Position numbers and translations under genes: made by a program
Notes under the pieces: model-generated
The model's database searches: none
What the model was told of the DNA's origin: nothing
Seen by the model: only the letters and a program-made list of their open reading frames with translations
In this document: positions 941-39,383 of the stretch, one piece after another
Numbering within the stretch: the stretch's first letter is position 1
How the letters are laid out: every line of letters begins with the position of its first letter
Assembly (NCBI GenBank): GCA_945877765.1
Contig: CAMDWQ010000001.1
Location: forward strand, 22,253-86,252
Direction of reading: 5' to 3'
From: Candidatus Omnitrophota bacterium
GTDB taxonomy: Bacteria > Omnitrophota > Gorgyraeia > 2-02-FULL-51-18
Length of the DNA stretch: 64,000 bases

Positions 941-947
941 AGCATAA

Positions 948-2174: not shown

Positions 2175-2323
2175 TATTCCCTTTCCACATCAGCTAGCGT
2201 GATTCAATCGCTTAAATAAATTGCTATTCTTTAAAAAGTACTTAAGCGTGATTATAAATAAATAGAAATAAAATAAATATCGTTAGCTGAATTATAACTC
2301 AGATTACAAAAAAACAAAACAAC

Positions 2324-2360
2324 AAAAAAGACCTTTGTTGCTCAACAAAGGTCTTTTTTT
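2324..2360. terminator. Bidirectional rho-independent terminator (GC hairpin flanked by an A-run and a T-run), immediately downstream of glnN
   Basis: aaaaaagacctttgttgctcaacaaaggtcttttttt: an 11-12 bp perfect stem, with A7 on the 5' side and T7 on the 3' side. It sits 14 nt after the glnN stop on the minus strand. Confidence 0.7.
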
Positions 2361-2373
2361 AAATCTATCTAGA

Positions 2374-22112: not shown

Positions 22113-22188
22113 GGGCCTGTAGCTCAGTTGGTAGAGCGCCTCCATGGCATGGAGGAGGCCAGCGGTTCGAGACCGCTCAGGTCCACCA
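22113..22188 (+). tRNA. tRNA-Ala (anticodon GGC)
   Basis: Cloverleaf GGGCCTGTAGCTCAGTTGGTAGAGCGCC(TCCATGGCATGGAGG)...GGTTCGAGACCGCTCAGGTCCACCA. The anticodon stem is CCTCC/GGAGG with loop ATGGCAT. The G3:U70 Ala identity pair is present, as is the TPsiC arm GGTTCGAGACC, and CCA is encoded. Confidence 0.85.
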
Positions 22189-22207
22189 AATTCTTTATTA
22201 CCCTCTT

Positions 22208-22291
22208 GCCGAAGTGGCGGAACTGGCATACGCGTCGGTCTCAAAATCCGATCCCCTTACGGGGTTGTGGGTTCAACTCCCACCTTCGGTA
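22208..22291 (+). tRNA. tRNA-Leu (anticodon CAA), class II with a long variable arm
   Basis: GCCGAAGTGGCGGAACTGGCATACGCGTCGGTCTCAAAATCCGAT...GGGTTCAACTCCCACCTTCGGTA closely resembles E. coli tRNA-Leu(CAA) (GCCGAAGTGGCGAAATCGG...TTCAAAATC). The anticodon loop CTCAAAA has U33 and A37. A long extra arm CCCCTTACGGGG is present, and no CCA is encoded. Confidence 0.75.
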
Positions 22292-22300
22292 CTCTTTTTT

Positions 22301-23492: not shown

Positions 23493-24530
23493 CTAATTTC
23501 TTACTTTTTTTGACGGCAATTTCGACTCTAATTCACTTTCCATCTCTTCAACCGTAGGTAATTTTGACAATAACTTTCCCTTTATCTTCTGAGTCAAAAT
23601 ATAATTGCTTATGCCCATCGGCTTTTTAATATCTCTCAGGGAATACTCCGCTTCGATTTTATCTTTATACCTGCACAGTATCAGCCCTATTGACGGATTA
23701 TCATCTGGGCGTTTCAACAAAGAATCAACCGCAGATAAATAAAAATTGAGCTTTCCCGCGTACTCCGGCTTAAATCTTCCGGCCTTTAATTCAATAACCA
23801 CATAACAACGCAAATCCAAATGATAGAACAACAGGTCAATAAAATACTCGTTGCCAGATATCTCCAGCCTATACTGCCTGCCCACAAAAGCAAATCCCTT
23901 GCCAAGCTCAAGCAGGAAAGACGTTATTTGTTTAGTCAGATTCTGTTCGATCTCTCTTTCCTGGGCACTGTCTCCAAGTTCCAAAAAATCAAATAAATAT
24001 GGATCCTTAACAGCCTGTCGCGCAAGATCCGATTGAGGCGGCGGTAATGTCCGGGAGAAATTATTCAGCGCTTTGCCTCTTCTATCACAATACCCATTTT
24101 CTATCTGCATCTCAAGTATGTCCCTTGACCATCCATTCTGCAAAGCCGCGGAAGCATACGCAAGAGCGGTATCAACTTTACGCATTTTAGCCAAAATTAC
24201 ACGATTGTGCCCCCATGGTATTTGTGCCACAGGCTGTGGCACAATTTCAAACTTTGAAGAATAGAATAGATACCACTGCCTTATGGCGTAAAGGTTCCTA
24301 CGGGAAAAACCTTTCATCCCGGAAAAGTCTTTTTTAAGATCGGCTGCCAGCCGCTCAACAAGCCCATCGCCCCAGGAAGCCTCGGACTGTTTCTTGATTA
24401 TTTCTTTGCCTATATCCCAGTAAAGTTCCATAAGCGTCTGCGAAAGCCCCTGAGCAGCCCTTAAGCGAGCGGAAATAATCTTCTGCTTTAAATCAGCAAG
24501 CCATTTTATATAATCGCGTGATATCTTCAC
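23493..24530 (-). CDS. DUF1016 / YhcG-like PDDEXK-fold nuclease domain protein
   Basis: 345 aa. The C-terminal restriction-endonuclease-like core (FIDLLFYHLDLRCYVVIELKAGRFKPEYAGKLNFY: the D...E-x-K arrangement) and the N-terminal helical domain are typical of YhcG/DUF1016. The segment is visibly AT-rich (by eye) compared with its neighbours. Confidence 0.65.
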   Translation of the reverse strand: MKISRDYIKWLADLKQKIISARLRAAQGLSQTLMELYWDIGKEIIKKQSEASWGDGLVERLAADLKKDFSGMKGFSRRNLYAIRQWYLFYSSKFEIVPQPVAQIPWGHNRVILAKMRKVDTALAYASAALQNGWSRDILEMQIENGYCDRRGKALNNFSRTLPPPQSDLARQAVKDPYLFDFLELGDSAQEREIEQNLTKQITSFLLELGKGFAFVGRQYRLEISGNEYFIDLLFYHLDLRCYVVIELKAGRFKPEYAGKLNFYLSAVDSLLKRPDDNPSIGLILCRYKDKIEAEYSLRDIKKPMGISNYILTQKIKGKLLSKLPTVEEMESELESKLPSKKVRN

Positions 24531-24807: not shown

Positions 24808-27800
24808 TTACGCCGCCTGCAATGCCATTTTGATCATCAAGCTATAGGTCTGTATCATTTCCTCGACCGCAAGCTTCATGACGGGTGGGAGGGCAAATTG
24901 CTGGAGGATTTTTAAGTCTTCCAGAAGACCCTTTAAGGCATTGATGAAATCAGGCAGGTCTTTGGGTTTAAATTCACGTCCTAATTGTTTTTGGTAGGCT
25001 TGGTAGAATTGGACAAAATAAGGATTGCTGATGCTTAGCTCTTCCAGACGGGCTTCGAAGCTAGCGAGAGTGAGAGTGGCGGGATTAAGTACGCCTCTTT
25101 CGCCAAGATCAAGAAGATAGAGAAAGCGTGTCTTGCTATTGGGCTGGTGTCTTCTGGTAGATGAGGTGACATAGACTCGCTCTGCTTTTTGATAGGTTAC
25201 TTGTAGTTCACTAAAATTTAGAACCATGAGATCTTTTTCTGTGGGGTAAAGCCTCTTTGCCTCTTTAAGCATCGCGCGGGCCTGATGACCCACGACGACA
25301 TACCTGACAAATTTGCCCCCGGGAGTGCGTCTTTCATTGTGAAGCTGGGCCACTAGAAGCTGGATGGCTAATTGAGTTACGTTTCCTTGGGGAAGCACGG
25401 CATTGGTGTTTAAAATGACCACTGCGGGCTCATTGATGAAGGATTCGGGCACATTCGCATAGAGCGTGCGGGCTTCGCGGGCGGCTTCTTCCATGATGAG
25501 CCTATAGTCGGCCAGCGACATGGTGGCGGTGGTTTGGTTGCCTTTGCGCCTTATTTTGATTTTTCTAGCGCCAATGGCTATGCCCCTGTCGGCCAAGCCA
25601 TAAAGAATTGCCTTTCCATCATCCCGGAAGACTATTTGAATGACGGAGGAGCCGATGGCGATTTGTTTATTTTCATGGACGTTTTGGGTGGTAATGACTT
25701 GGGCGATGAAGGTAATGACTTCGCCTTTTTGAATATTCACCACGGGATGGCCTTGGGTTAGCTCTAAGTTGAGTGGTCTGGGACGCCGAGCAGGGACTCT
25801 GGAAGTGGGAACGCGTTCTAGGGTTGTGGTGGCGAGGCGGGCGGCATTGGGCTTCGCCAGTCTCGCGCCATCCAACACTGTACCCCCCGTACTGTTTTTT
25901 TCTCTGATCACGTGGGCTGCGGGACTCCCAATAATATTCTTCCCCCGCTCAATGGATTCGCGAATGGTTGTAATCGGTCGGACCTGTAGAACAACAATTC
26001 GGTCATCTGCGTCCAAAGACCACTCCATGTCGATCTGAGTCCCAAAATATTCAGATAGCTTGTAAACCACTTCGGCAACCGCTTGAAGTTGTTGTTCATT
26101 GAGTGCTGGCTCAAGAGCTTGTGCGTTAGGTTCCACCTTATAGCCTCCCTGCGGCCCCAGATCTAGCAGAACCTGTTCGGTTTTAACACCTACATGAGAG
26201 TCAAGAAGTTCATATCTTCCCGAAGCGCTTGTTGTTTTTGAAAATAGATACGAATCCGGATCCTTGACAGTTTGATCCACCAGCCCTTTGGCTAACCCAT
26301 GGGCCGCATCCACTCGTATGTGATCGGCTCTCTGTTGGGCAGGATCAGCGCTGAAAGCAACGCCGGACGCTTTTGGGTTAATCATCTCATCCACCAAAAT
26401 ACTCTCAGCCCCGGATAACCAAACATCGACAACAGCTCTTGAAAGGGCCTGAATTCCGAATACGTTAAGTTTGGTCTCCTTCATTCCCGCCATCGCTTCA
26501 TCAACGCTATCTTCTTTCAATCCCGAAGAGCGCACAGCAACCGCCCCAAGCACTTTCATAGAATTCCCGATGGAACGAGAAACATCACTTGTTTCATACT
26601 TAAGTAGCAACAACTCCACTGAATCTCGCAGACTTAAAATTAAGCCATCGATAGAATGAAGCTCCTGGCTTCTTTGAAGATTTTGCTTAAACTTTAAAAT
26701 TTTAGTCTTAACTTCTGTTTTAAATTTAACTGACGTTCTTTCGTCAATGGCTATCAACCTCTCAAGATTGTTTAATTGCTTCACTGTCAAATCGCGGTAG
26801 GCAAAAGCTAGGTTGGCTTGAAGCTTAAGATCAATGCCTTTGCTTTCTTCGATTTTTTCTTGCAAGGCAGCGGAGATCTTCCAAGATTTTTCAGCTAGAT
26901 TTCCGGTATCGATTAAAGCATTTAATGATTGGTTTGCCTTTGACGTTAGTTCAAAAATATCGGCCGGGCCTTTCGCGTCTCTCACCTTGTCTACAAAACC
27001 ACTAATGGCCTGGTGGATATCAATCCTAAGATCCGCGGAAGTCTCTTCATCTGTTTTAATTAATTCCAGAATACCTGAAAAAATCGTATTCAACTGCCGC
27101 TGCCAATCATTGGCATATTCATCAATCCCTGTCATGCCCTCAAGAGAATTTAGTTCTTCAGGGTGCTCGCGAACCCTCCAAAGAAAATACTCAGTTGGCT
27201 GAATGACGAATCCTTCGGGAGTCGCGACTTGCACCGAGGAATCTATCAAGCCCCTTTCTTGAAGTTGTTTTACCGCGTAGGTTGTCTCGGCAGAATTACT
27301 ACCTTTCCCCCCTGCGATGGGCCTTGAAAAACGGTCTTTTAAATTTTCTTTCCAGACAACACCGCGGCCTTGAAGTTCTTTGATTTCGTCTTCGCGCGCT
27401 TTTTTGAGAGCGTCAATTTTAAGTTTTATTACCAAGATTTTTTCTTTGATGGTGGAGTCGCCTTCCTCACCGGTCATACCGGCAAGCTCTAACTTATTCC
27501 AAAAACTTAGAAGCACCGGCAGTTCAGATCCGCTTAACTCGACGACTGCACTTTCAACCTCAGCCGATATCTCTTTTCTGGCCGCACCAAGCCATTCCCG
27601 GCCCTTTTCGATCATCTCTGCCCTGGAGGATTGCAGCATCATCGCGGTAAATGGGTGCTTCCAATCTCCGTTTGCCGCCAGCATCGTCCGGTCAAGACGC
27701 TCTGCTTGCTTCATTAGTTTATCGGCTTCCAAAAATACTTGCTCAAAATCGTATCGTCTGGCATATTTTTTTTGTTCTATATATTGATGAAATTTTTTCA

Positions 27801-30800
27801 AATCTGCCTGAAATTGGTCGATCAATTCTCCCGCCTGACTTCTCACAAATTCCAAAATTGTGCTTCTTATGACTGGGTTTTCTGAAAGTTGGGTCAATAA
27901 GGACTCGATGCTATCGGACGGAAGTACCGCGCCTCCCAAAATTTGATCCAACAGCGCTCTCACCAGGTTCTGATTTGAGATCCTAGAAATAATATTCCCC
28001 AGAATATTCACGTCTTTGGGTAGAATCTCATAGGATGCTTTCGTTTCCATTCTTTCCTTCCACATCAAGTACTCCGTATACTTTATGACCGTTTCACCAC
28101 TCAAGTCATCGGCTCCCGCAATAAAATAAAGGGTGCCTTGATTAGCGTCTAAATAGACCAAATCTCCATCATGAACCTCACAGGTAGTTTGTTTTGCGTC
28201 AGCTATCGCATGAAATACTATTTCTTTTCCACCAACCTCTATCTTCATCTCTGTTGTATCGGCGGTATAAGTCTTAAAGCGCAGGACTTGGTTATGCACT
28301 GAAGCTCCATTAAAAATAACAGCGGGCTTTCGATTTTCACGCGCCCGTATAGCCGCATGAGATAATGAGCCGCCTGTAGTAATCGCAACTCCGTTTGCGG
28401 CGGCAATGCTCGGATCATCCTCATTGTCGGTATAGTCGGCAATCAAAATTCCGTTTTTAAACTCGTCCGCACTTCTTCCTGTTTGCTTAAATCGGGCAAA
28501 ACCGATCGCCTTGCCAAGATTCAAACGCACTCCACCCAAAGAAACTGCGCTGATACCACGCCTTTGATTTGGTCTTTCCAATAATTGCTTTTTTTTAAAT
28601 GGTCCCGTCATACGATTTAATAGATGCTCATTAGAAATAGCAGAAAAAATACCCCGTGCCCCGTCAGGACTATTGGCTGCTCCAGCCAAACGAGCCCCGC
28701 TCATCTGGACGGCAAGCGACTCAAACCATTCCCGAAATGCGCTAGTGGAGGCAAAGCCTTGCGGCAACAAGAGCTCTTCTAAGTCATAGGGACTAAGCTT
28801 GTTATTAACTAATTCTCTTTTCCGGAATAAATCATATCTCCGTTGATTCATAAAAAATTCTCCCAAAATTGCCGTACCCAGAACAAACTGGGAAGATTTC
28901 GTGTCTTTCAAGACATAAAACGTGATCTGATCTCCTAAAGCAGCAAGCTTCAATTCTTCGACAAGATAAGGACCGACTTCTCCGATGGTCGTGCGAGAAC
29001 AAAAAGATTGGAGTGATCGAGCAATCGCCGCCACCTGACGCATGTAAATAATCTGAAGTTGGTCGGCTTTGTAGGCGGCCTCGATTAGCCGAGCGACTGG
29101 GAAGTTACGAGCCGAAGCTTCTTGGTAAGCAGCATCAAATTTATAATTCCCATCATCAATCACAACTAACGCTCCTCTAGAAATGAGAGTCTGGATGCCG
29201 TGACTGATAAAATCCATCATCCTTTGACCGCTTGGCATACCATCAGGCACTTCTATCCCAAGAGCCACGGCCAGTGCTTCTACTTGTTTGACAGCGGCCG
29301 GCAGTGGCGTCGGCACCATCACCGAATCTTTATCGCTTCGCAAGAGATAACCATTGGCGACGAATTCAGAAGTTAGGTCCGAAGCATTTACATGGGGGGA
29401 GCGATTAATAGCGAGGTCAAGATCGAGAGTTGAAGTAACCACTTGTACTGCAAAATTCAGCTTCTCGGGAAGATCCGCTATAGAGGATGCGCCATGATCT
29501 TTATCAAAAACTGCTTCCATATGATATCCATCCCTGCTGACCATAAAACCAGCCGCTTCAAACGCATCACAAATACTTCTAAAACGCGTGCTGTTACCAG
29601 GCTCATAGATTTTCTCGATATTATCCATATAGCTCACCAAAATTCGGCCCTCCTCCTGGACAGGCAGAAGCGAAAAATGGATGGCCGCGCTATGAAGACC
29701 CAGCTTAAGACCGATCAACGCTGTATTTTCATCCGCCATGACAAGAGCGTTGGAGGGATCGAAAAAACGTGAATTCTTATGCCTTAATTGATTCAGCGAA
29801 AAAGCCTGGGTAACAGCAAGAACCGCTATTGAGTGCTCTTGCTGTGGTTTTTGTCGAGCGTCGAGATATTTGACATTGACCTGGGTCCTCGAGTCAGCAG
29901 AGCTGACCATACACGTAGACACTCTCTGGCTCCCACCGGAGGGCATAACACCTCCCAGATTTCTCACACCTTTTTGATGGACAATGTTGATTAGTTCGGC
30001 GAAGGAAACGGCTTCATCACTAATCGGCGTTCCACTACCGATAAAAGCTATGTAGTCACCCAAATTGATACTCCTAACTCGGGTCTCGTAACCCTCGGCA
30101 GGGGCAACCGTCAGCCGAGAGGATTTTTTAGAATCAAACAACTGCATCATTGCTTCAATGGATGGTTGGATAGCGTGTGCTTTTCCAGGAAGCGACCGAA
30201 GACTGTCCATAGCACCCTCTACTTCATGCCGGATATTTAAAAATAACTTTGCGATGGACCTCCCCCCTTGAAGATCTGACGATTCCTTGGCAATAGAATC
30301 CAAACTTTTCCCAGGAGGCTGCCCCTTGAAAAGCACCTCGTAAGACAGCACCATCAACTGCATGGTATCTAACAAAGCTAAAATATCCTCCGGAGACTTG
30401 TTGGGCTTGCCAAGTTTTTGCAGGACCTCAGAATTTAGTTTTTCAAAATCGCGGTACATGGCCATGACTCGTTGCGCCTCAGGGTTAGCCGTCGGGGTAT
30501 CTACCATTGGCACAAAAGCGTATTCGACGGGTATAACACGTCCCGTATGGTAGTCAATTTCCCGATGTAAAAAAGAACTCAATTGTTTGAAATCTGGTTT
30601 TCCATAAACCTGTGGAACGGGAACATTTCTATTTAACTTGCCGTAAATTTCTGAAAGAGCCAAGAGGGCTTGTTCGCTTCCGTTGTTAACTTTTGTCTTT
30701 AGAATTAGATAGATTTCAGCTTGTTGAGGAGAATTTAAAAAGACGTAGGCGGCGCCTAGGGCTAGGAGGACGACTCCATTCCCGCTGTTAACTTGTGCCT

Positions 30801-33800
30801 TTAGAATTGGATAGATTGCAGATTGTTGGGAGAGAGTTAAAGAGGCGTAGATAGGGCCTAGGGCCCGGAGGGCATATTGATTTCCGTTTTCAGCTTGTGT
30901 CTTTAGAATCGGGTAGACTTCAGATTGTTGGGAAGAAGTTAGAGAAGCGTAGGCGGAGCCTAGGGCTTGGAGGGCAATTTCCTGCCCAGTTTTAGCCTCT
31001 GTCCTGAAGAGCGTATAGATTTCGGATTGTTGGGAAGAAGTTAGAGAAGCGTAGGCGGAGCCTAGGGCTAGGAGGGCGCGCCCACTTCCACTTTCAGCTT
31101 TTGTCTTTAGAATTATAAAGATTTCAGATTGTTGGGAAAGGGTTAAAGAGGCGTAGGCGAGTCCTAGGGCCCGGAGGACTACTTCGCTTCCTTTATCAAC
31201 TATTGTCTTTAGAGTTGCATAGATGTCGACTTGTTGGGCAGAGGTTAAAGAGGCGTAGGCGAGTCCTAGGTCCCAGAGGGCGAATTCATTTTCTTCGTCT
31301 GCTCCTGTCTTTAAAGTTGCGTAGATGTCAAGTTGTTGGGCAGAGGTTAAAGAGGTGTAGGCAGAGCCCAGAGCTAGGAGCGACGAACTGTATTTAAGAT
31401 CAACGGCATTTGTTTTCAAAAAGTCATAAAGCTTTTGAAAATCCGCCATCACTTCATCAGGATTTGAGATCTGTGGGGTTGCTTTGGTTTCCACAGGTGT
31501 GACCGGGGTCATGGTATTTAACTTGCCGTAAATCTTTGAAAGGGCCCAGAGGGCATCTCCATCACCTTTGTCAGCTTTTGTTCTTAGAATTGTGTAAATA
31601 TCAGATTGTTGGGAAGAAGTTAAAGAGGTATAGGCGAATCCTAGGGCTACGTCGGCGCCAGAATTTCCTTTTTCAGCTCCTGTCTTTAAAATTGGGTAGA
31701 TTTCAGATTGTTGCGAAGTAGTTAAAGAGGCGTAAGCGGCTCCTAGGGCTCGAAGGGCAGTTCCATAACCTTTACCAGCTTCTGTCTTTAGAATTGCATA
31801 GATTTCAGATTTTTGAGAAGGGGTTAAAGAGGCGTGGGCGAAGCCTAGGGCTTCGTGGGAAAATACACTTTTATTGTCAGCTTCTGTTTTTAGAATTGGA
31901 TAGATTTCGGATTGTTGGGAAAATGCTAAAGAGGCGTAGGCAAGGCCTAGGGCCCAGAAGGCATCTCCACTTCCACTGCCAGCTTCTGTCTTTAGAATTG
32001 GATAGATTTCGGATTGTTGGGAAGGAGTTAAAGAAGCGTAGGCGGAGCCTAGGGCTAGGAGGGCGTCTCCATTTCCTTTATCAACTTCTGCCTTTAGAAT
32101 TGGATAGATTTCGGATTGTTGGAAAAGAGTTAATGAAGCGTAGGCGGGGCCCATGGCTAGGACGGCATCTTTATTTTCTTTGTCAGCTTTTGTCTTTAGA
32201 ATCAGGTAGACTTCGGATTTTTGGGAAGGGGTTAATGAGGCGTAGGCGCAGGCTATTCCAGTGCCAGGGTTTGCCTTTAAAATTGGATAGATTTCGGATT
32301 GTTGGAAAAGAGTTAAAGAAGCGTAGGCGGAGCCTAGGGCATACAGGCCATTTGAATTTCCATTTTTAGCTTGCGTCTTTAGAATCAGATAGACTTCAGA
32401 TTTTTGGGAAGGAGTTAAAGAAGTGTAGGCGGAGCCTAGGGCTAGGAGGGCGTGTCCATTTCCGTCTTCAACAGCAGCTTTTTTCAAAGAGTCATAATGC
32501 TTTTGAAAATCCTCCCTCACTTCATCAGGGTTTGAGATCTGTGGGGTTGCTTTGGTTTCCACAGGTGCAGCCGAGGTTATGGTATCTAGCTGGCCGCCAA
32601 TCCCTGAAAGAGCCAAGAGAGTTTGTTCATATCCACTGTCAGCTAGTTGCTTTAGAATCGGAAAGGCTTCGGATTGTTGGGAAGGGGTTAAAGAGGTGTA
32701 GACAGATCTTAGGGCTTCGAGAGCATTTAAATTTCCTTTTTCAGCTTGTGTCTTTAGAATTAGGTAGACTTCAGATTGTTGAGAAAGAGTTAAAGATGCG
32801 TAGGCGGAGCCTAGGGCTTGGAGATTGGAAGCACTGGGCGGTTTCATGATGACAGACGGCCGAATCATCTTATAAAGCCCCCAAATAGTTGCACAAGTGG
32901 CAAACAAAACAGCGATAGAAAAGAACATGTAGTTGGCAACTGTCATTAAAACATTTTCTTCTTTTGGCTTTTCCAGTTTGGCTTCTTTGTCGGATGTAAT
33001 ATTTTCATTGGGCTGAGAATTCGATTCTTTATCAGACTGAATATTTTTTCCGGTTTGAGGATAGCTGACTATCTGATCCACCGCTTCTCCTTGCGCTTTG
33101 GTATCGCCAAAATACTTTTTAATGCTGGGGGAAGGCTTGGTTTTTTCATCGGCTGACGGTTGAGATGAATCCTGCTGCGCTAAAGATTGGGACGCAAGCG
33201 GCACAGAGAAGCCCAGCAAAACAGCACCCGATAAAATCAGGTGCCTAAACATTTCTCCGGCTGAATTTTTAGGGTGGTTTGTCTTCGCAACACGTGCGTC
33301 GCCATTCGACGATCCCCCATTATCTGCCAGCCGGGCAGCATTCATCGAATAGACTGCTCCCGCCAAAATATCTTTTTTGATATTTTGAGCTTTTGCCGTA
33401 GCAGCCATCCTACCCTGTCCCATAACATAGGCAGTCATATCCATTTTAGCGGCCACAGTGCTTACCACTGGCTGTTTTACATTCACGGATATCTGACCCA
33501 AAAGTATTTCCTCATACCTCTTAATATTCGTCTCATGCGTCACCTCGGGAATAATAGAGATGTAGGAAATGTTCCTTTGTTTTAAAAGATACTTAAGATT
33601 GGGTGTGTGATAGCCGCCGGTGATGAGGATAGCGCCTGCCTGCCGGCTAGGCAGGGATTTTGAATCTTGGATGGCGGATATATTTTTCAGAAAAACTTTA
33701 TCTCTCTCATAAGTTAGCTCATAGAATTTTTTACAGAGATTCGCCATATCTGTGAAATCTTCCTTAAGAAAAATCGCTTTTTCATAATGACCTTTTAAAA

Positions 33801-35076
33801 CCATGAGCTTTTGATTTAGAAAACCTGAGAGAGTTTTAATATCCGCAAAATCCTCTTTTTTGAATTCTTCATATTCTTCGGGAGTCAGGGACAGGTGAAA
33901 TAGTTTTTTATAAAACTCTAAAACTTTGATAGAAAGAAGAAGCTTGGACTCATCCTCATTGGTAGTGAAATTCTTAAAAATCTGGTCTTCCAGAGCTTTC
34001 TTTTCCGATAGGAGGTCTTTGGGGCTCAGAGAATTTGATTTTTCAAGGTATGCGAAATATTTAAATAACTCAGGGTATTTTGTTGTGCCTTTTAATTTTT
34101 CTTTCAAATATAGAAAAAATCCTTTTTGTGAATCTTTCATGGACAGCTTTGAGGCGGATTGGCCGCTTAACTCCCTTTGATCCTCCGCACCTAAAGATTC
34201 AATCGCTTTTTGTTGCTCTAGGCTTGCATCTTTAAAGTCAATTTTGGATTCAAAATTTTTAAGTTCTTTTAATTTCAGAAGATTCGGGAAATGGTTCAAA
34301 TCAATATTTAAAACATTAGCTTGGAGAAAAAGTGCATCGACATAGTCGGAGAAACTGGTTTCATCCTTTTTTGCTTTGTTATACTTCTCAAGGAATGACA
34401 AAAGAAATGGGTTTAGAAGCTTTGGTTTTAGGACTTCAATCGTAGATTCGATTTCCTGCAGATAGCTTTCGAAACGGTCCCTTTTTTTGATGCTTTGTTT
34501 ATAAACTTGTAGAGACTTAAAATAAAGATTCGGATCTTCAACTCCCACAACTTTAAAATTGTGATCGCTGGTCAGATCGAGATATTCAATTCCATGAAGA
34601 AGCCCTTTCTGTAAATATTCTTTGGCAATATTCTGTCTTTTGGACAAAGAAGCTCTGTCTCTTAAAAAAGTAAGATTGGCATTGCCATTGGCAGCCTCGG
34701 TGAAGACGGTATCTGCTATTCCGTTTTGGAATAATAGATCGAAGAGTTTGGCTTCGTTTAACTGGCATGAGGAATTGGTGTGAGCGTCTTGGATGAGGAT
34801 GATGGTTTCGGAGGGGCTAGACCCCTGTGGTATCTGGTAGGCGTCTTCGATGGTCGCTACTGATTCAGGGATTGGAGGAAGTAGCTTTTTAGCCCATTCC
34901 AGATTCTTTTGTTTTTCCCCCCTATCCTCCGTCCTCCATCCTAAATCCATCTTTCGAAGCTCAGGTGCCGAATAAGAAAACTCTTGAATTATTAGGCATA
35001 AAATTAGCGTGAGCGAGAGGCTCTTAAGAAAGACCGTTCGTGTCGTCTTTTTGACGATGCGGGGGCTATTTATCAT
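24808..35076 (-). CDS. Giant (3422 aa) membrane-anchored multidomain protein: TIKI/TraB-like N-domain, ~20 HEAT/PBS-lyase-like 35-aa repeats, PEP-utilizing-enzyme phosphohistidine swivel domain, and PEP-synthase/rifampin-phosphotransferase-like ATP-grasp domain
   Basis: A single uninterrupted 10,269-nt ORF. The N-terminus has a signal peptide/TM (VFLKSLSLTLILCLIIQEF), and a second TM lies at ~aa 712-738 (MFFSIAVLFATCATIWGLY). About aa 748-1480 are tandem ~35-aa repeats (ALGSAYASLTPSQQSEIYPILKTEAxKGNxxAL). At ~aa 2225-2320 TTGGSLSHAAIRARENRKPAVIF...HDGDLVYLDANQGTLYF is a strong match to the PEP-utilizers mobile domain with the catalytic His. At ~aa 2575-3036 AGGKGSNSAE, AVRSSGLKEDSVDEAMAGMKETKLNV, IDMEWSLD and VLQVRPIT give a PPDK_N/PpsA ATP-grasp nucleotide-binding domain. 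No PEP/pyruvate TIM-barrel domain is present. Domain assignments are from motif recognition only. Confidence 0.8.
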   Translation of the reverse strand: MINSPRIVKKTTRTVFLKSLSLTLILCLIIQEFSYSAPELRKMDLGWRTEDRGEKQKNLEWAKKLLPPIPESVATIEDAYQIPQGSSPSETIILIQDAHTNSSCQLNEAKLFDLLFQNGIADTVFTEAANGNANLTFLRDRASLSKRQNIAKEYLQKGLLHGIEYLDLTSDHNFKVVGVEDPNLYFKSLQVYKQSIKKRDRFESYLQEIESTIEVLKPKLLNPFLLSFLEKYNKAKKDETSFSDYVDALFLQANVLNIDLNHFPNLLKLKELKNFESKIDFKDASLEQQKAIESLGAEDQRELSGQSASKLSMKDSQKGFFLYLKEKLKGTTKYPELFKYFAYLEKSNSLSPKDLLSEKKALEDQIFKNFTTNEDESKLLLSIKVLEFYKKLFHLSLTPEEYEEFKKEDFADIKTLSGFLNQKLMVLKGHYEKAIFLKEDFTDMANLCKKFYELTYERDKVFLKNISAIQDSKSLPSRQAGAILITGGYHTPNLKYLLKQRNISYISIIPEVTHETNIKRYEEILLGQISVNVKQPVVSTVAAKMDMTAYVMGQGRMAATAKAQNIKKDILAGAVYSMNAARLADNGGSSNGDARVAKTNHPKNSAGEMFRHLILSGAVLLGFSVPLASQSLAQQDSSQPSADEKTKPSPSIKKYFGDTKAQGEAVDQIVSYPQTGKNIQSDKESNSQPNENITSDKEAKLEKPKEENVLMTVANYMFFSIAVLFATCATIWGLYKMIRPSVIMKPPSASNLQALGSAYASLTLSQQSEVYLILKTQAEKGNLNALEALRSVYTSLTPSQQSEAFPILKQLADSGYEQTLLALSGIGGQLDTITSAAPVETKATPQISNPDEVREDFQKHYDSLKKAAVEDGNGHALLALGSAYTSLTPSQKSEVYLILKTQAKNGNSNGLYALGSAYASLTLFQQSEIYPILKANPGTGIACAYASLTPSQKSEVYLILKTKADKENKDAVLAMGPAYASLTLFQQSEIYPILKAEVDKGNGDALLALGSAYASLTPSQQSEIYPILKTEAGSGSGDAFWALGLAYASLAFSQQSEIYPILKTEADNKSVFSHEALGFAHASLTPSQKSEIYAILKTEAGKGYGTALRALGAAYASLTTSQQSEIYPILKTGAEKGNSGADVALGFAYTSLTSSQQSDIYTILRTKADKGDGDALWALSKIYGKLNTMTPVTPVETKATPQISNPDEVMADFQKLYDFLKTNAVDLKYSSSLLALGSAYTSLTSAQQLDIYATLKTGADEENEFALWDLGLAYASLTSAQQVDIYATLKTIVDKGSEVVLRALGLAYASLTLSQQSEIFIILKTKAESGSGRALLALGSAYASLTSSQQSEIYTLFRTEAKTGQEIALQALGSAYASLTSSQQSEVYPILKTQAENGNQYALRALGPIYASLTLSQQSAIYPILKAQVNSGNGVVLLALGAAYVFLNSPQQAEIYLILKTKVNNGSEQALLALSEIYGKLNRNVPVPQVYGKPDFKQLSSFLHREIDYHTGRVIPVEYAFVPMVDTPTANPEAQRVMAMYRDFEKLNSEVLQKLGKPNKSPEDILALLDTMQLMVLSYEVLFKGQPPGKSLDSIAKESSDLQGGRSIAKLFLNIRHEVEGAMDSLRSLPGKAHAIQPSIEAMMQLFDSKKSSRLTVAPAEGYETRVRSINLGDYIAFIGSGTPISDEAVSFAELINIVHQKGVRNLGGVMPSGGSQRVSTCMVSSADSRTQVNVKYLDARQKPQQEHSIAVLAVTQAFSLNQLRHKNSRFFDPSNALVMADENTALIGLKLGLHSAAIHFSLLPVQEEGRILVSYMDNIEKIYEPGNSTRFRSICDAFEAAGFMVSRDGYHMEAVFDKDHGASSIADLPEKLNFAVQVVTSTLDLDLAINRSPHVNASDLTSEFVANGYLLRSDKDSVMVPTPLPAAVKQVEALAVALGIEVPDGMPSGQRMMDFISHGIQTLISRGALVVIDDGNYKFDAAYQEASARNFPVARLIEAAYKADQLQIIYMRQVAAIARSLQSFCSRTTIGEVGPYLVEELKLAALGDQITFYVLKDTKSSQFVLGTAILGEFFMNQRRYDLFRKRELVNNKLSPYDLEELLLPQGFASTSAFREWFESLAVQMSGARLAGAANSPDGARGIFSAISNEHLLNRMTGPFKKKQLLERPNQRRGISAVSLGGVRLNLGKAIGFARFKQTGRSADEFKNGILIADYTDNEDDPSIAAANGVAITTGGSLSHAAIRARENRKPAVIFNGASVHNQVLRFKTYTADTTEMKIEVGGKEIVFHAIADAKQTTCEVHDGDLVYLDANQGTLYFIAGADDLSGETVIKYTEYLMWKERMETKASYEILPKDVNILGNIISRISNQNLVRALLDQILGGAVLPSDSIESLLTQLSENPVIRSTILEFVRSQAGELIDQFQADLKKFHQYIEQKKYARRYDFEQVFLEADKLMKQAERLDRTMLAANGDWKHPFTAMMLQSSRAEMIEKGREWLGAARKEISAEVESAVVELSGSELPVLLSFWNKLELAGMTGEEGDSTIKEKILVIKLKIDALKKAREDEIKELQGRGVVWKENLKDRFSRPIAGGKGSNSAETTYAVKQLQERGLIDSSVQVATPEGFVIQPTEYFLWRVREHPEELNSLEGMTGIDEYANDWQRQLNTIFSGILELIKTDEETSADLRIDIHQAISGFVDKVRDAKGPADIFELTSKANQSLNALIDTGNLAEKSWKISAALQEKIEESKGIDLKLQANLAFAYRDLTVKQLNNLERLIAIDERTSVKFKTEVKTKILKFKQNLQRSQELHSIDGLILSLRDSVELLLLKYETSDVSRSIGNSMKVLGAVAVRSSGLKEDSVDEAMAGMKETKLNVFGIQALSRAVVDVWLSGAESILVDEMINPKASGVAFSADPAQQRADHIRVDAAHGLAKGLVDQTVKDPDSYLFSKTTSASGRYELLDSHVGVKTEQVLLDLGPQGGYKVEPNAQALEPALNEQQLQAVAEVVYKLSEYFGTQIDMEWSLDADDRIVVLQVRPITTIRESIERGKNIIGSPAAHVIREKNSTGGTVLDGARLAKPNAARLATTTLERVPTSRVPARRPRPLNLELTQGHPVVNIQKGEVITFIAQVITTQNVHENKQIAIGSSVIQIVFRDDGKAILYGLADRGIAIGARKIKIRRKGNQTTATMSLADYRLIMEEAAREARTLYANVPESFINEPAVVILNTNAVLPQGNVTQLAIQLLVAQLHNERRTPGGKFVRYVVVGHQARAMLKEAKRLYPTEKDLMVLNFSELQVTYQKAERVYVTSSTRRHQPNSKTRFLYLLDLGERGVLNPATLTLASFEARLEELSISNPYFVQFYQAYQKQLGREFKPKDLPDFINALKGLLEDLKILQQFALPPVMKLAVEEMIQTYSLMIKMALQAA
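30636..32835 (-). repeat. Intragenic tandem repeat array (~105-bp unit, ~20 copies) encoding the HEAT-like repeats of the giant protein; it contains a higher-order duplication
   Basis: The plus strand shows recurring blocks such as ctttagaattggatagatttcggattgttgggaaRgagttaaagaRgcgtaggcggagcctagggct with 105-nt periodicity. The larger protein segment PVETKATPQISNPDEV occurs twice (aa ~838 and ~1193), indicating block duplication. The many spurious plus-strand ORFs at 31203-32849 are antisense artefacts of this periodicity. Confidence 0.8.
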
Positions 35077-35154
35077 AGGTCTATGTATTACATATAGATA
35101 CGTGGAGTATGCCCAATAACTACCGATATTGCAAATTTTTTACAAGCTTGGGTT

Positions 35155-35961
35155 TTGGGGGCAATAAAACTCAATCAGAATTGCCAAACAAGCTCATCCA
35201 TGTTAGCATCATCGACTATGATCACAAATTTCTCCACACAAGAAGAAATTATCAAAAAACTACGCTCCATTGCAAAAATTCACAGCTTTGACGTAGTGCA
35301 TCGTATTTCGTCTGTTTTCTACGATGTTCTCAAGATTTCCTTTTACGCTTTGCAAAGAAAAATCGAAGGTCTCAGGGAACGCCCCACTGGTCCGGTGGTC
35401 TTGTCTACAAACGAGATTACTAAGCTTTTTAAGCTAATCCACTATCACCATTCTCAAAACCATATCCATCTTGTGAGCAATGAGTTAACTGAGTGCTTCG
35501 GTCGTAACTTCATCGAGGCCGATGCATTGAGTTACTTTGAGAAAAAAGTTGAGGGCAATATCTCCGACAAATTTGGGAGACAAATATTCGTTAGTTTGGA
35601 CGATGGGATAAAATTTATGTACAAAAACCAAGATACCGGCAAACATGAAATTGACTCAAAATACTACCTGCCTTATAGGGGTAAGCGCTTACCATGGATT
35701 CAGCATACTTTGAAAAATTCTAAAAATATTTATACAAGGACTGATGGTTCTGATCAAGAACTCATGTATGTGAATCAATATGATTTACCTGATTATGATG
35801 GGCAGGGTAGCAAATGTTTCTGGATTGTAATTTTGAGGCGGTACAAAAAAGACCGTGTCGGCCCTTTTAAATTTAAAACTGCCTTTGCAATTTTTAAATA
35901 TAATAATTTTCTAAAAAGAATCGAAAGATACCGACCCATCACGGAAACCAAGCAAAACTAA
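35155..35961 (+). CDS. Hypothetical protein (AT-rich orphan; start uncertain, possibly at MLASSTMITNF or MITNF)
   Basis: 268-aa ORF on the otherwise almost empty plus strand, divergent from the giant gene. The region is ~35-40% GC by eye against ~50% for the surroundings. No recognisable motif (HYHHSQNHIH, KCFWIVILRRYKK). It may be a foreign or toxin-like gene. Confidence 0.4.
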   Translation: MGAIKLNQNCQTSSSMLASSTMITNFSTQEEIIKKLRSIAKIHSFDVVHRISSVFYDVLKISFYALQRKIEGLRERPTGPVVLSTNEITKLFKLIHYHHSQNHIHLVSNELTECFGRNFIEADALSYFEKKVEGNISDKFGRQIFVSLDDGIKFMYKNQDTGKHEIDSKYYLPYRGKRLPWIQHTLKNSKNIYTRTDGSDQELMYVNQYDLPDYDGQGSKCFWIVILRRYKKDRVGPFKFKTAFAIFKYNNFLKRIERYRPITETKQN

Positions 35962-36146
35962 AGCCCGCTTTTGGATGTCTATAAATCTCCAAAAGCGGGC
36001 AAAAATTTGTTGCTGGTGCAAGAAAACGAACACTCGTGATCACCAATCCCACCAGCCAGACTCGGCGAATAGACTGTTCGTTATTAGGATGACCAAATAG
36101 TACTTGAAAAGTCTATCCCTGTCAATTTCTTCTTAATACAATGCTC

Positions 36147-39100
36147 TTAATACAAACGAAAATCAGCGGCCTGCTGAAAGCATGCCAAAAGGCGTTCACG
36201 GACCTTTTCCAGGCTCTCCGGCGAATAAACAAATTCGTGAGTTTGATTGAGTGTTGAAAAATAAAGCATCCCGCGGACGGGCGCCTCTCCGTAAAGCTCG
36301 CGAAATACAAAAGCGTACAAACCCAGCTGAAATTCATACTCCTGCGCTGTTTTTTTGGACTCAAGGGAGGTGATCTGGTTGGTTTTATAATCCAAGATCA
36401 CCCACTGCCCTGCCTCACGGTAGACTAAATCAATCTGGCCCTTCAGAATGCCGTGCGGTGTCTTAAAAATAAACGGAAGCTCCGGATGGCAGGCGGGTGA
36501 TTTTTTCACCGATGTTCCGAGAGGGCTTTTCCAGAAAGCCGCACTGCTCTCGCGGATCTCGTCTTTTTCAGCAGAGGTGAGTGGCGAAAGAATTTTCATC
36601 AAGAAATCCTCGCGAATGAAACCTCGCGGTGAGCCCAGCGTCATCATTTCCATCACGCGGTGATAGATCGTTCCATACTCATTTCGCGGCGACCTCTCGA
36701 GATCCTCGGGGTCGATGGTTTCTGGTTCTTCTAAATAAACCGGCGGTTTTGGCGACGCTTGCGCCAAAAGATCGCTCACGCTTAAATCGGTTGCCGCATC
36801 GTACGGCTTTTGAGGTAGGTGCAGGCGCTCAAGGATTTTTGCAACGTCCGGCATCACCGGCTCGACGGTTGTCACGGAAGGCTCACGTGACTCTCCGGAA
36901 ATGGACGAAGAGGAAAGCGCTTTCTCGCGGCCCAAAAGATTTAGCACGCGCTCCATCCAAGTGGCATTTTTATTCCCAGAGACGGTTTCACGAGGCGCTG
37001 CGCCACACAAGAGAAGATGTTCACGCGCGCGTGTGACCGCCACGTACAAAATGCGATCCTCTTCTTCCTCTTCTTTTTCATCCATGCGGTTGGCAGCGAC
37101 TTCATAGGCCTCATCGTTTAGTTTTTTACGTTCATCCAGAGGATCCTGCCAGGACCAGCCCAAACCTCCCTCGGTAGACGCGATCGCCAAGCCGCGGTCC
37201 TTAGGCTTTTTCTGACCTCCCAAGTTCGCGATCGCCACAACCGGAAACTCAAGGCCCTTCGCCGCGTGAATGCTTGACAGAAATACCGCGTCGCTTCCAT
37301 CGGTTGCGATTCGCGCTTCCTCCGTCTCATCTCTCTCGGCCATGCCTTTGGCGTAACGCACAAATTCGGCCGCATCCAAGGACATTTTTTCTTCCAGAGA
37401 ACGCGCGATCTCCACGAGTTTTCGCCCATTGGCGACGCGCTGAATCCCATCGGGACCAGCCAGAGCAAAACATTCGTAGTCGCTCCAGCGCAGTATTTTT
37501 TCCAAAATCGACGAAACGGTAAAACTGTTTTTGACGCTTCGTAAAGATTCTAAAAACTCTACAAATACCTGGACGCGGAGGCGGTCTTTTTCCGACAAGC
37601 CTTCCACCGTGGATAAATTATCGAGCGCACGTGAAAGCGACCGTCGCCGGGAATCATCTTTTTTGGCCGCGCGGGCCAGCCAAAAAAGACCGTCATCAGA
37701 AACGCTGGCCAGCGGCGAGCGAAGAGCCGCCGCCAAAGCAACGTCATCGTCCGGATGATCCAGAAGAGCCAGCAAAGACACCAGGTCCTTGATTTCTGTT
37801 TTTTCAAAAAAAGATTTCGATTTCGGAGAATAAAACGGGACGCCCAGGCGCGAGAGCGCACGCTCGTAAGTCTGCGCTTTTTTGGCGCTGCGCATCAGGA
37901 TCGCCACATCGCCCCATTTCATCGGCCGACCAGACAGAGTCCCGTCCTCAACACAAACACCTGAACGAACCAACGATAAAATGCGCTCGGCCAAAAGCCG
38001 GGCCTCATCCTCACGGCCCTCGTCAAGATCTTTCAATTTTTCGTCCGGGCCATAAAACGCGCAGAGAGGCTCGATAGTCCCCTTAACCTCAAGCAAGAAT
38101 TTTTTTCCGGGAACCAACGCCTTAAAAACACCATGGGCGTCTACCGCAAAAAAATGGTTCACAAAATCCAGCACCTCGAATCGAGAGCGGTAGTTCTCAT
38201 CCAGAGTTATTTTTTTTCCGGCCAAAGCCTCATAGTGCCCGAAAAGAGCAGGCTCGGCATGCCGAAACGCGTAGATCGATTGTTGCGGATCTCCCACGAG
38301 AAATAGGTTGTTCTTGCTCCTCAAAAGATCGATAAGCTTTGCCTGTAACGGGCTCGTATCCTGGAACTCATCCACCAATAGATGACAAAAACGATTCCGA
38401 TAACGCTCGCGGACCGCTTTTTTCGCGGGAGTCTCGCCTTTCAAAAGCTTCCACGCTAAGAGCGTCAGATCCTCGAAATCCAGCGCGGCCATTAATCTTT
38501 TTTCATTTTCATAGTTTTCCATAAATACGTGCATGATTTTCAAGAACTCTTCTTTAAAAGGAAAAAATAATTCCCCAAGCGCCGCCAGCTTCCAGGCACC
38601 GGCGTCTTTCCGGAAGGATTCGACCCACTCCTTGAAAGTCTCTGAGCCTCTTTTTTGAATGGAACGCTCGATCACCCGAAACGCCTCGAAATTCCGCCAG
38701 TCTAGAAATGCGGCGGAAAAAATTTTAGGGATATGTCTAGCGCCTTCAATAGCAGCAGCTTCATTGGCGGTTATTTTTTTATTCTTTCCGGCTATTTCTA
38801 TCACCTCAAGAAAAGCTTGGGAGATCTTCGCCTCTAGAGGTTTGCGGTCAAGACCGCTGCGGATCGTCAAAATATTTTCGTCTTCCCCGGTCGCGCGAAA
38901 ATGAGCATACAAACGCAGCGCCGCCAGGCGCACAGAGACTTCACCGCGCTCCGTCAGCATTTCCAGCGCCACAGCGCTATCGGCATGCGCCTCAAATGCG
39001 GCATCCAACGCTTTGGTCATCAAAATATCTGATTCAGCCTTGGATAAAACTTTGAAATATGGATCCACAGCAGCTTCGATTGGATTTTCACGCAAAAGCC

Positions 39101-39383
39101 TCGCGCAGAAGCCATGGATCGTGCCGATATAAGCCGTCTCGAGCGCCCGACGGTCCTCTTCGCGGCCGGCCTGAATGAATTCTTTTACCAGCTGGCGCTT
39201 CATGTGGTTGGCGGCCGGCTCAGTGAATGTCAACGCCAGAATTCGATCGGGCGCCTGCTTAAGATCGATGACCGCATACTTAAAGCGGTTCACGAGCACC
39301 GACGTTTTTCCTGAGCCTGCACCCGCGCTGACGCAGATATCGGCGCCAAACGATGCGGCCGCTTCCTGCTGCTTAGAATTCAT
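36147..39383 (-). CDS. addA: ATP-dependent helicase/nuclease AddA (UvrD/PcrA-like SF1 helicase with C-terminal RecB-type nuclease)
   Basis: 1078 aa. Walker A SAGAGSGKTSVLVNRF and SF1 motifs (LTFTEPAANHMKRQL, LLVDEFQDTSPLQ, GDPQQSIYAFRHA, RSR). The C-terminal PD-(D/E)xK nuclease has GQIDLVYREAGQWVILDYKTNQ. It overlaps addB by 11 nt. Confidence 0.85.
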   Translation of the reverse strand: MNSKQQEAAASFGADICVSAGAGSGKTSVLVNRFKYAVIDLKQAPDRILALTFTEPAANHMKRQLVKEFIQAGREEDRRALETAYIGTIHGFCARLLRENPIEAAVDPYFKVLSKAESDILMTKALDAAFEAHADSAVALEMLTERGEVSVRLAALRLYAHFRATGEDENILTIRSGLDRKPLEAKISQAFLEVIEIAGKNKKITANEAAAIEGARHIPKIFSAAFLDWRNFEAFRVIERSIQKRGSETFKEWVESFRKDAGAWKLAALGELFFPFKEEFLKIMHVFMENYENEKRLMAALDFEDLTLLAWKLLKGETPAKKAVRERYRNRFCHLLVDEFQDTSPLQAKLIDLLRSKNNLFLVGDPQQSIYAFRHAEPALFGHYEALAGKKITLDENYRSRFEVLDFVNHFFAVDAHGVFKALVPGKKFLLEVKGTIEPLCAFYGPDEKLKDLDEGREDEARLLAERILSLVRSGVCVEDGTLSGRPMKWGDVAILMRSAKKAQTYERALSRLGVPFYSPKSKSFFEKTEIKDLVSLLALLDHPDDDVALAAALRSPLASVSDDGLFWLARAAKKDDSRRRSLSRALDNLSTVEGLSEKDRLRVQVFVEFLESLRSVKNSFTVSSILEKILRWSDYECFALAGPDGIQRVANGRKLVEIARSLEEKMSLDAAEFVRYAKGMAERDETEEARIATDGSDAVFLSSIHAAKGLEFPVVAIANLGGQKKPKDRGLAIASTEGGLGWSWQDPLDERKKLNDEAYEVAANRMDEKEEEEEDRILYVAVTRAREHLLLCGAAPRETVSGNKNATWMERVLNLLGREKALSSSSISGESREPSVTTVEPVMPDVAKILERLHLPQKPYDAATDLSVSDLLAQASPKPPVYLEEPETIDPEDLERSPRNEYGTIYHRVMEMMTLGSPRGFIREDFLMKILSPLTSAEKDEIRESSAAFWKSPLGTSVKKSPACHPELPFIFKTPHGILKGQIDLVYREAGQWVILDYKTNQITSLESKKTAQEYEFQLGLYAFVFRELYGEAPVRGMLYFSTLNQTHEFVYSPESLEKVRERLLACFQQAADFRLY

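Follow-up and report, generated by a model that had tools for sequence, protein, structure and literature searches.

The gene and its features

The subject of this report is a single very large gene in a stretch of 64,000 nucleotides (the window, here and below) from a Candidatus Omnitrophota bacterium (assembly GCA_945877765.1, contig CAMDWQ010000001.1, positions 22,253 to 86,252). The gene lies on the minus strand and encodes a giant protein of 3422 amino acids, the features of which are collected in Table 1. We consider it probable, with some reserve, that this protein belongs to a modular family whose members combine a Sec signal, a TIKI-like hydrolase and a swappable middle, the middle being in this case a module that would pass phosphate from ATP to a histidine and from there to an acceptor.

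Table 1. Features of the giant protein, from N to C terminus, with residue numbers and positions in the window.
Feature	Residues	Window position	Strand	Basis
Whole open reading frame (3422 amino acids plus stop codon, 24808-24810)	1-3422	24808..35076	minus	single open frame from ATG
Predicted Sec-type signal peptide	1-36	34969..35076	minus	conserved N-terminal pattern and hydropathy, by inspection
N-domain, TIKI/TraB/ChaN/EreA-superfamily core fold	60-545	33442..34899	minus	fold and invariant residues
Hydrophobic segment 2, moderate, signal-peptide-like	609-630	33187..33252	minus	Kyte-Doolittle mean 1.55 over 19 residues
Hydrophobic segment 3, strong predicted transmembrane helix followed by K/R/K	709-732	32881..32952	minus	Kyte-Doolittle mean 1.86
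Array of 34-residue repeats	751-1469	30670..32826	minus	TRF period 102 nt, 71-83% matches; register listing
Mid domain (683 residues)	1483-2165	28582..30630	minus	conserved, directly N-terminal of swivel domain
PEP-utilizer phosphohistidine swivel domain	2163-2332	28081..28590	minus	Pfam PF00391, E 2.2e-10, 40 bits against a cut-off of 23
Helical domain between swivel and ATP-grasp	2333-2561	27394..28080	minus	spacing comparison
PPDK_N-type ATP-grasp domain	2562-3041	25954..27393	minus	Pfam PF01326, E 5.5e-34, 118 bits against a cut-off of 27
Family C-domain, ending MALQAA	3114-3422	24811..25737	minus	iterated profile across family

An earlier note on this DNA, written from the sequence alone, had reported one uninterrupted reading frame of about 10.3 kb, and this is borne out: a single minus-strand frame covers the whole gene and lies within an open stretch of 3443 codons, for which we estimate a chance occurrence at 46% GC of about (61/64)^3443, or roughly 1e-72. 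The identical protein, called from Met43, is present in two assemblies, on a 167-kb NCBI contig and on a 96-kb ENA contig (ERZ27280294, k141_169049). The motifs quoted in the earlier note fall at residues 92-101 (IILIQDAHTN), 482-491 (AILITGGYHT), 2233-2255 (TTGGSLSHAAIRARENRKPAVIF, which contains His2240), 2588 (AGGKGSNS), 2847 (AVRSSGLKEDS), 3015 (IDMEW) and 3029 (VLQVRPIT). Over the full protein, Pfam and NCBIfam returned nothing for the N-domain, the repeats, the mid domain or the C-domain.

A predicted phosphotransfer module of recurrent composition

The part of the protein with the clearest chemistry is a module of about 1,560 amino acids, comprising the mid domain (1483-2165), the swivel domain, a helical domain and the ATP-grasp domain to residue 3041. 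Two assignments made from motifs in the earlier note, a PEP-utilizing swivel domain and an ATP-grasp domain of PpsA/PPDK_N/RPH type, are upheld by the Pfam matches in Table 1 and, for the latter, by its conserved motifs as well. The catalytic His2240 (codon 28357-28359) lies in a motif GG..(S/T)HAA..ARE..PAV along which the swivel domain aligns with the C-terminal His domain of RPH, and the nucleotide and Mg motifs of the ATP-grasp domain are all intact, with GGK, RSS..ED, E and Q/R aligning with those of RPH; a helical insertion of about 150 residues separates its GGKG and AVRSS motifs. The best PDB sequence match for ATP-grasp and swivel together is Listeria RPH (5FBS/5HV1; E 9e-20 for 5FBS), while the top partial NCBIfam matches are to RedH, PigC, PpsA and RPH, each falling well short of its cut-off. 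The phosphoenolpyruvate (PEP)/pyruvate TIM barrel that the earlier note had found missing is indeed absent, no match to PEP-utilizers_C (PF02896) being obtained at E<=1. What had been taken as a helical linker of about 260 residues is indeed a helical region between swivel and ATP-grasp, but it is closer to 230 residues and recurs, at 202-219 residues, in the five homologs measured, from Omnitrophota and other bacteria.

Two other Omnitrophota proteins (P0121, P0122) conserve the region 1486-3054 as a single block at 33-43% identity. An exhaustive profile search with the mid domain found 92 representatives among 1.84 billion, and in about 70 of the 92 our own profiles recover the order mid, swivel, ATP-grasp; in two proteins the ATP-grasp domain comes first, and the mid domain there still stands directly before the swivel. 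The exhaustive representative search was used in place of two less productive ones, a homolog search with a module query of 1,583 residues (3 proteins) and a search with a 3-sequence mid-domain alignment (none), in both of which low-complexity words are suspected of having saturated the candidates. At least 18 of the mid-domain representatives also carry the Omnitrophota N-domain described below, and two larger N-domain proteins, P0200 (7462 residues) and P0207 (4125 residues), contain two copies or partial copies of the module. Many other module proteins stand alone at 1.3-2 thousand amino acids (kaa), some with signal-peptide-like N-termini and others without.

In 10 stand-alone relatives (P0154, P0155, P0169, P0172, P0177, P0179, P0191, P0196, P0198 and P0203) an LMW-PTP/ArsC-type domain is fused to the module, at three different positions, and each fused domain retains an intact C-x5-R-S motif of the form C(T/A)GN(T/A)CRS. 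These fusions hint at a kinase/phosphatase pair, and suggest that the product of the module may be a phospho-substrate of the LMW-PTP class.

The mid domain

The earlier note had set aside a region of about 750 residues as belonging to no recognisable family. It is true that no known family is matched, but the region is better described as a conserved domain of 683 residues in which H1700, D1739, H1795, K1859 and Q1951 are invariant across 16 diverse sequences and D1858 and D1887 nearly so. Its predicted model (pLDDT 82.1, pTM 0.83) is mixed alpha/beta. A mid-domain profile gave chance-level matches only against PDB sequences, hhalign found no relationship with an RPH-like protein, and the best Foldseek hit of the model in PDB has E 0.027 at TM 0.11, so far as these PDB searches go leaving the modelled domain without a solved structural counterpart. 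The mid domain presumably binds the acceptor or is itself catalytic.

Signal peptide and topology

The N-terminus of the giant protein reads as a Sec-type signal peptide, with a positive n-region, an h-region of about 12 residues and an S-Y-S/A-P cleavage-type site (the slash marking the cleavage point). By inspection, about 60 homologs keep the n-, h- and c-regions, an AXA-type site and the pattern FLxQ[DE]hxhA/[AN]P[DE]; hydropathy gives a further basis for the call. Because this pattern is conserved in homologs, Met1 is likely the start of the protein, rather than the Met43 of the databases. The public gene call (P0001, 3380 residues) begins at Met43 and thereby omits residues 1-42 (window 34951-35076), the conserved signal peptide included, and the start residue of the closest homolog, P0003, aligns with query position 43. 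Topology surveys resting on gene calls of this kind would miss the export signal. Two other kinds of signal were considered and rejected: a lipoprotein signal, since the lipobox is inconsistent among homolog N-termini, and a prepilin-type signal, since Glu at +5 is absent from them.

Further into the protein the earlier note had placed a second transmembrane helix after the N-domain; a hydrophobic helix is present there, but there are two segments (609-630 and 709-732) and not one. The first is absent from most homologs. Most complete homologs have the signal peptide without an additional hydrophobic helix, and for these proteins the prediction is of export in their entirety. In the giant protein itself, K, R and K follow the helix at 709-732 on its C-terminal side, and the flanking charges of this helix fit a topology in which the N-domain would be periplasmic and everything past residue 732 cytoplasmic, provided that 609-630 does not span the membrane; if both segments span it, the module would be extracytoplasmic. 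It is plausible that the giant protein is envelope-anchored.

The N-domain

The domain that follows the signal peptide has an alpha/beta fold with a parallel beta-sheet core, as in the TIKI/TraB/ChaN/EreA superfamily, its core being split into two halves by a helical insertion of about 300 residues. Invariant residues are D97, H99, Q105, E127, G178, E180, Y185, R458, G487, G488, H490, P510 and Y521; five of these (D97, H99, E127, R458 and H490, invariant in 23 sequences) form a 2His/2Glu-type set with a basic residue, the first acid being Asp rather than Glu. In RRSP, the residues shown to be catalytic by mutagenesis are E3900-x-H3902, E3930, R4001 and H4030, and D97-x-H99, E127, R458 and H490 of the N-domain have nearly the same spacing when the two are compared by sequence position. 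Fold and active-site set thus agree with the resemblance to the TIKI/TraB/GumN/EreA superfamily that the earlier note had drawn from the IILIQDAHTN and AILITGGYHT motifs bracketing this domain. At the level of sequence profiles the resemblance is faint: the query has no Pfam match to TraB, Cofac_haem_bdg or Erythro_esterase at E<=1, some homologs of the N-domain have weak sub-threshold matches (DUF5694, E 0.007; Cofac_haem_bdg, E 0.07), and the N-domain profile gave chance-level matches only against PDB sequences. Relative to ChaN (2G5G), EreC (6XCQ), Bcr136 (2QGM) and RRSP (5W6L), the N-domain differs in its large helical insertion and in having no Pfam model match at threshold.

Among the matches listed, the N-domain occurs only at the N-terminus of proteins of at least 1.9 kaa. 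To judge from its conserved residues it is most likely an active hydrolase, protease or esterase. Its placement right after the signal peptide mirrors, by analogy, that of the C39/S8 peptidases in larger giant proteins as these are described in the parts of the preprints available to us (cited below), and because of this parallel a role in self-processing would be plausible.

Repeats, C-domain and the protein family

Between the hydrophobic segments and the module lies a tandem array that had been described as about 20 HEAT/PBS-lyase-like repeats of 35 residues. The array is real, but its period is 34 residues and it contains 18 full copies plus one truncated copy running into a spacer, arranged in three blocks with the consensus ALLALGSAYASLTPSQQSEIYPILKTEAxKGNGD. 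The HEAT/PBS-lyase label has been dropped, since HEAT, HEAT_2, HEAT_PBS and TPR profiles from Pfam do not match the isolated repeat region even at E<=10; the array is nevertheless presumed to form an alpha-solenoid scaffold of helical hairpins. The blocks are separated by a duplicated spacer of about 45 residues, PVETKATPQISNPDEV(R/M)xDFQKxYDxLK, with starts at residues 838 and 1194 (windows 32452-32601 and 31384-31521, residues ~826-875 and ~1186-1231), and these two copies indicate a probable higher-order duplication of spacer together with repeat block.

The C-terminal end of the protein, absent from the earlier description, is a conserved domain of about 310 residues. An iterated profile detects it in 34 family members; in 27 it forms the exact C-terminus, and in 33, these included, no more than 18 residues separate it from that terminus. 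Its tail, R(L/M)AxxMxEQ(A/S)A-COOH (window 24811-24830), has an invariant last Ala and a nearly invariant Q at -2 (alignment A3), which suggests that the free C-terminus may be recognised by a PDZ-type protease, an anchor or a sorting factor. The C-domain has no Pfam match, and a Pfam scan of the family members carrying it gave scattered noise only; a profile search against PDB sequences gave chance-level matches only.

A homolog search with the protein returned 126 proteins, of which the 120 listed span 1.9-6 kaa. At least 118 share query residues ~30-560, at 23-62% identity and always at their own N-terminus, while the Pfam content of the middle varies almost completely from protein to protein. 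Enzymes found there include phosphoglucomutase, PGI, hexokinase, adenylate kinase, PEPCK, transketolase, malate synthase and glycogen phosphorylase, and other domains include methyltransferases, protein kinases and sigma factors. Members that carry source names are mostly Candidatus Omnitrophota. The earlier note had called the domain combination unprecedented and matched to no described family, a description that does not survive these counts: at least 118 giants have the N-terminal module in common, many of them the C-terminal one too, and about 70 library representatives contain the phosphotransfer module as a single unit.

A single-sequence search for related loci gave 8 loci. The closest genomic relatives are Omnitrophota metagenome-assembled genomes (MAGs), together with others that carry the automatic label 'Planctomycetia', each MAG having three paralogous loci. 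Two that go under the name 'uncultured Planctomycetia bacterium' (contig sets CAZAPB01 and CAZBIH01; loci L006-L009, L011 and L012) have three N-domain loci each at 40-65% identity to the query, and may be misclassified Omnitrophota.

Genomic surroundings

The neighbours of the giant gene are ordinary chromosomal genes, among them LeuRS, ComEC, an AddAB-like helicase-nuclease pair, GGDEF/EAL, a ZIP transporter and a YhcG-type nuclease, and the window contains just one gene of the giant-protein kind. No partner genes are common to the neighbourhoods of the query and two homologs. Adjoining the start of the giant gene is a divergent open reading frame of 268 residues (247 in the ENA record) at 35155-35961 (+) that has no Pfam match, and beyond it, at 36147-42375 (-), an AddA/AddB-type pair (UvrD helicase with PDDEXK_1; ADDB_N with PDDEXK_1) forms an ordinary recombination-repair locus. 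Directly downstream is the gene of a YhcG/DUF1016 PD-(D/E)XK nuclease (23493-24530, -), followed by a pair of tRNA genes, tRNA-Ala and tRNA-Leu (22113-22292, +); no link of either the nuclease or the tRNA pair to the giant gene was seen at homolog loci. Over 34001-36000, where the giant gene begins and the intergenic region adjoins it, GC content falls to 0.385; the window as a whole stands at about 0.46.

A proposed mechanism and its alternatives

We propose that the Sec-type signal peptide, with which every member of the family begins, would export the protein. Next in line is the TIKI-superfamily hydrolase-like domain, its active-site set [D/E]xH...E...R...H fully retained; we infer both the export and the hydrolase activity. 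The middle of family proteins would then bring helical repeats and one or more enzymes of a normally cytoplasmic type, differing by paralog. Here ATP would be split at the ATP-grasp domain and its phosphate placed on His2240; the swivel domain bearing this residue would hand the phosphate on to an acceptor bound at the adjacent mid domain with its invariant His, Asp and Lys. Chemistry running from ATP to His to acceptor is well supported, because the motifs are intact and homologous to those of the PEP-utilizer superfamily, and within it we infer the direction of transfer and the acceptor role of residues 1483-2165. The RPH-type catalytic logic of the earlier note therefore holds as to the path from ATP through His to substrate, with motifs intact and RPH as the best PDB match, but the order of the domains is that of GWD and not that of RPH. 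Pyruvate as the acceptor is effectively excluded, because the TIM barrel is absent. The LMW-PTP fusions appear to point to a phospho-protein or other macromolecule with a hydroxyl or guanidino group, rather than to pyruvate or an antibiotic, and we would rank a hydroxyl or guanidino group on a protein or macromolecule above a polysaccharide (as for GWD), and that above a small molecule (as for RPH).

Several points weigh against this proposal. The call of a signal peptide is made from manual reading and hydropathy only, an ATP-dependent enzyme that is exported is biochemically awkward, and, should the segments at 609-630 and 709-732 both span the membrane, the positive-inside pattern around them is at odds with export of the N-domain. 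The mid domain is without detectable similarity to known acceptor-binding domains, its role being read from position and conservation alone, and the AF2 alignments were shallow, at 23 and 16 sequences. Among the module-bearing proteins surveyed, the C-domain was detected solely in the query, and so an architecture with two conserved ends is not universal.

The acceptor is the point on which the alternatives chiefly differ. A phosphotransferase directed at proteins, acting on Tyr, Arg or another side chain, with the fused LMW-PTP domain reversing the modification in stand-alone relatives, is a possibility we regard as doubtful though worth keeping in view. It draws on the LMWPc domains with intact C-x5-R-S motifs in 10 representatives, whose three different positions argue for functional coupling rather than accidental fusion; LMWPc is, however, absent from the query and its Omnitrophota relatives, the LMW-PTP fold includes arsenate reductases, so that the domain could act on the phosphohistidine itself, and no groove for substrate of the protein-kinase kind was identified. 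Rather less probable to us is a polymer dikinase like GWD, in which glycogen or another polysaccharide, of the cell itself or of a host, would be phosphorylated for mobilisation, beside the glycogen and sugar enzymes of the paralogs. The order of acceptor-side, His and ATP-binding domains is that of potato GWD1, paralogs and (in the preprint portions at hand) larger Omnitrophota giants often carry phosphoglucomutase, glycogen phosphorylase, starch-synthase and 4-alpha-glucanotransferase, and one preprint, in the part available, lists PPDK_N among frequent domains of Omnitrophota giant proteins, beside glycolytic enzymes. Set against this are the lack of any carbohydrate-binding module, an alpha/beta model of the mid domain where the central domain of GWD is all-helical, the absence of a GWD-labelled chain among PDB fold matches (the presence of a GWD central-domain entry in these libraries being unchecked), a linker of ~210 rather than ~20 residues, and the LMW-PTP fusions, which suit protein substrates better.

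A phosphotransferase of RPH type acting on a small molecule, antibiotic or toxin, with an RPH-like pocket, seems improbable: 5FBS/5HV1 are the best PDB sequence matches for ATP-grasp and swivel and RIF_Ptrans_rph, RedH and PigC are among the top partial NCBIfam matches, but nothing supports the antibiotic-phosphorylating role that the earlier note had entertained. Least probable by far is that the gene is an assembly chimera or a decaying pseudogene and encodes no functional single protein. The metagenomic source, the repeat array inside the frame and the database start at another Met speak for caution, and the repeat copy number does rest on these assemblies; a chimera is nonetheless unlikely, because the same protein is found on two assemblies and the repeats are only 71-83% identical in their DNA, and the length of the open frame, the intact catalytic motifs and dozens of homologs with the same ends and similar lengths tell against both versions. 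Beyond the mechanism proposed above, it is tempting to read the whole family as a polymorphic system of enzyme carriers in Omnitrophota that live as episymbionts or predators, with Sec export, conserved ends for processing, anchoring or transfer and an interchangeable middle that would deliver cytoplasmic-type enzymes to the cell surface or a host; the present protein would then stand for a class of ATP/His phosphotransferase not seen before, its acceptor domain likewise new, and would use host ATP on a host macromolecule. We hold this broader idea to be unlikely as it stands, about on a level with the polysaccharide alternative.

New elements are the design of the family, with its two conserved ends, and a structurally novel acceptor-side domain; the protein otherwise falls within two kinds already known, the multi-enzyme giant proteins of Omnitrophota and the PEP-utilizer phosphotransferases. 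If our reading is right, Omnitrophota have a recognisable family of mid-sized giants that would be far easier to express and study than giants of 30-150 kaa, and that could show how the larger ones are built, exported and processed. The module of mid, swivel, helical and ATP-grasp domains would be a branch of the PEP-utilizers that is uncharacterised, and widespread yet rare, to go by its 92 representatives among 1.84 billion, and its LMW-PTP fusions would suggest an unstudied system of reversible phosphorylation. ATP-dependent enzymes behind conserved export signals, which the preprints, in the portions available, could only flag as a possible artefact of prediction, would become testable, the questions of compartment and acceptor both being directly approachable on a protein of manageable size.

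Comparison with known systems

With PpsA and PPDK the query has the ATP-grasp and swivel His domains in common, and dikinase-type chemistry is presumed; it differs from them in lacking the TIM barrel and in domain order, and the PpsA models of NCBIfam, the cut-offs of which are 598-740 bits, give it about 100. RPH (Listeria, PDB 5FBS/5HV1), PigC and RedH share the PPDK_N ATP-grasp and swivel His motifs with the query and likewise have no TIM barrel. In the RPH structure the rifampin-binding domain stands directly before the His domain. The order is permuted in the query, where the swivel precedes the ATP-grasp; the acceptor-side domains are unrelated in sequence and fold, the query adds a helical domain of about 210-230 residues, and its module is embedded in a protein of 3.4 kaa with a predicted signal peptide. 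The combination that defines RPH, namely the order ATP-grasp, RIF-binding, His with a homologous RIF-binding domain, is not found in the query.

Potato GWD1 has the order central, His and C-terminal ATP-binding domain (PMC13553574); the same paper treats this last domain as a homolog of its counterparts in PPDK and RPH, and gives the central domain as all-helical, with 20 helices. The module follows the same order, from acceptor-side through His to ATP-binding domain, in the query and about 70 relatives, the comparison being one of domain order. The query differs in being bacterial, in having a mid domain modelled as mixed alpha/beta instead of 20 helices, and in a swivel-to-ATP-grasp spacing of ~210 residues in the module against ~20 in GWD; it lacks CBM45, Pfam matching neither this module nor CBM20 nor another carbohydrate-binding one in it. 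A likeness of another sort, conceptual only, may be drawn with the MARTX toxins, which are very large secreted multi-effector proteins and include an effector with a TIKI fold, RRSP; the RTX repeats, cysteine protease domain and type I secretion (T1SS) signal of MARTX were not seen in the query.

The nearest parallel is with the giant proteins of Omnitrophota reported in two preprints ('Archaeovorins', West-Roberts et al. 2023; Nielsen & Lui 2026). In the parts of these available to us, the giants are described as proteins of 10-147 kaa with signal peptides or transmembrane helices, N-terminal C39/S8 peptidases, HEAT repeats, glycolytic enzymes and PPDK_N, and the oddity is remarked that such enzymes should be predicted as extracellular; to that extent HEAT repeats, PPDK_N and glycolytic enzymes within one kind of Omnitrophota protein had precedent, contrary to the earlier note. 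Neither in the portions of the preprints at hand nor in a full-text search of the literature did we find the TIKI-like N-domain, the shared C-domain or the mid-swivel-ATP-grasp module described. As far as those portions go, the query and the reported giants share their phylum, a predicted signal peptide or transmembrane helices, an N-terminal domain of presumed peptidase type, a repeat scaffold, embedded metabolic-type enzymes and PPDK_N. They differ in the kind of that N-terminal domain, which is a C39/S8 peptidase in the giants and TIKI-like in the present family, and in size, the giants being catalogued in those same portions at 10-30 kaa or more whereas the family spans 2-6 kaa and the query, at 3422 residues, falls below that class. 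The present family looks like a smaller and more regular version of the same giant-protein design.

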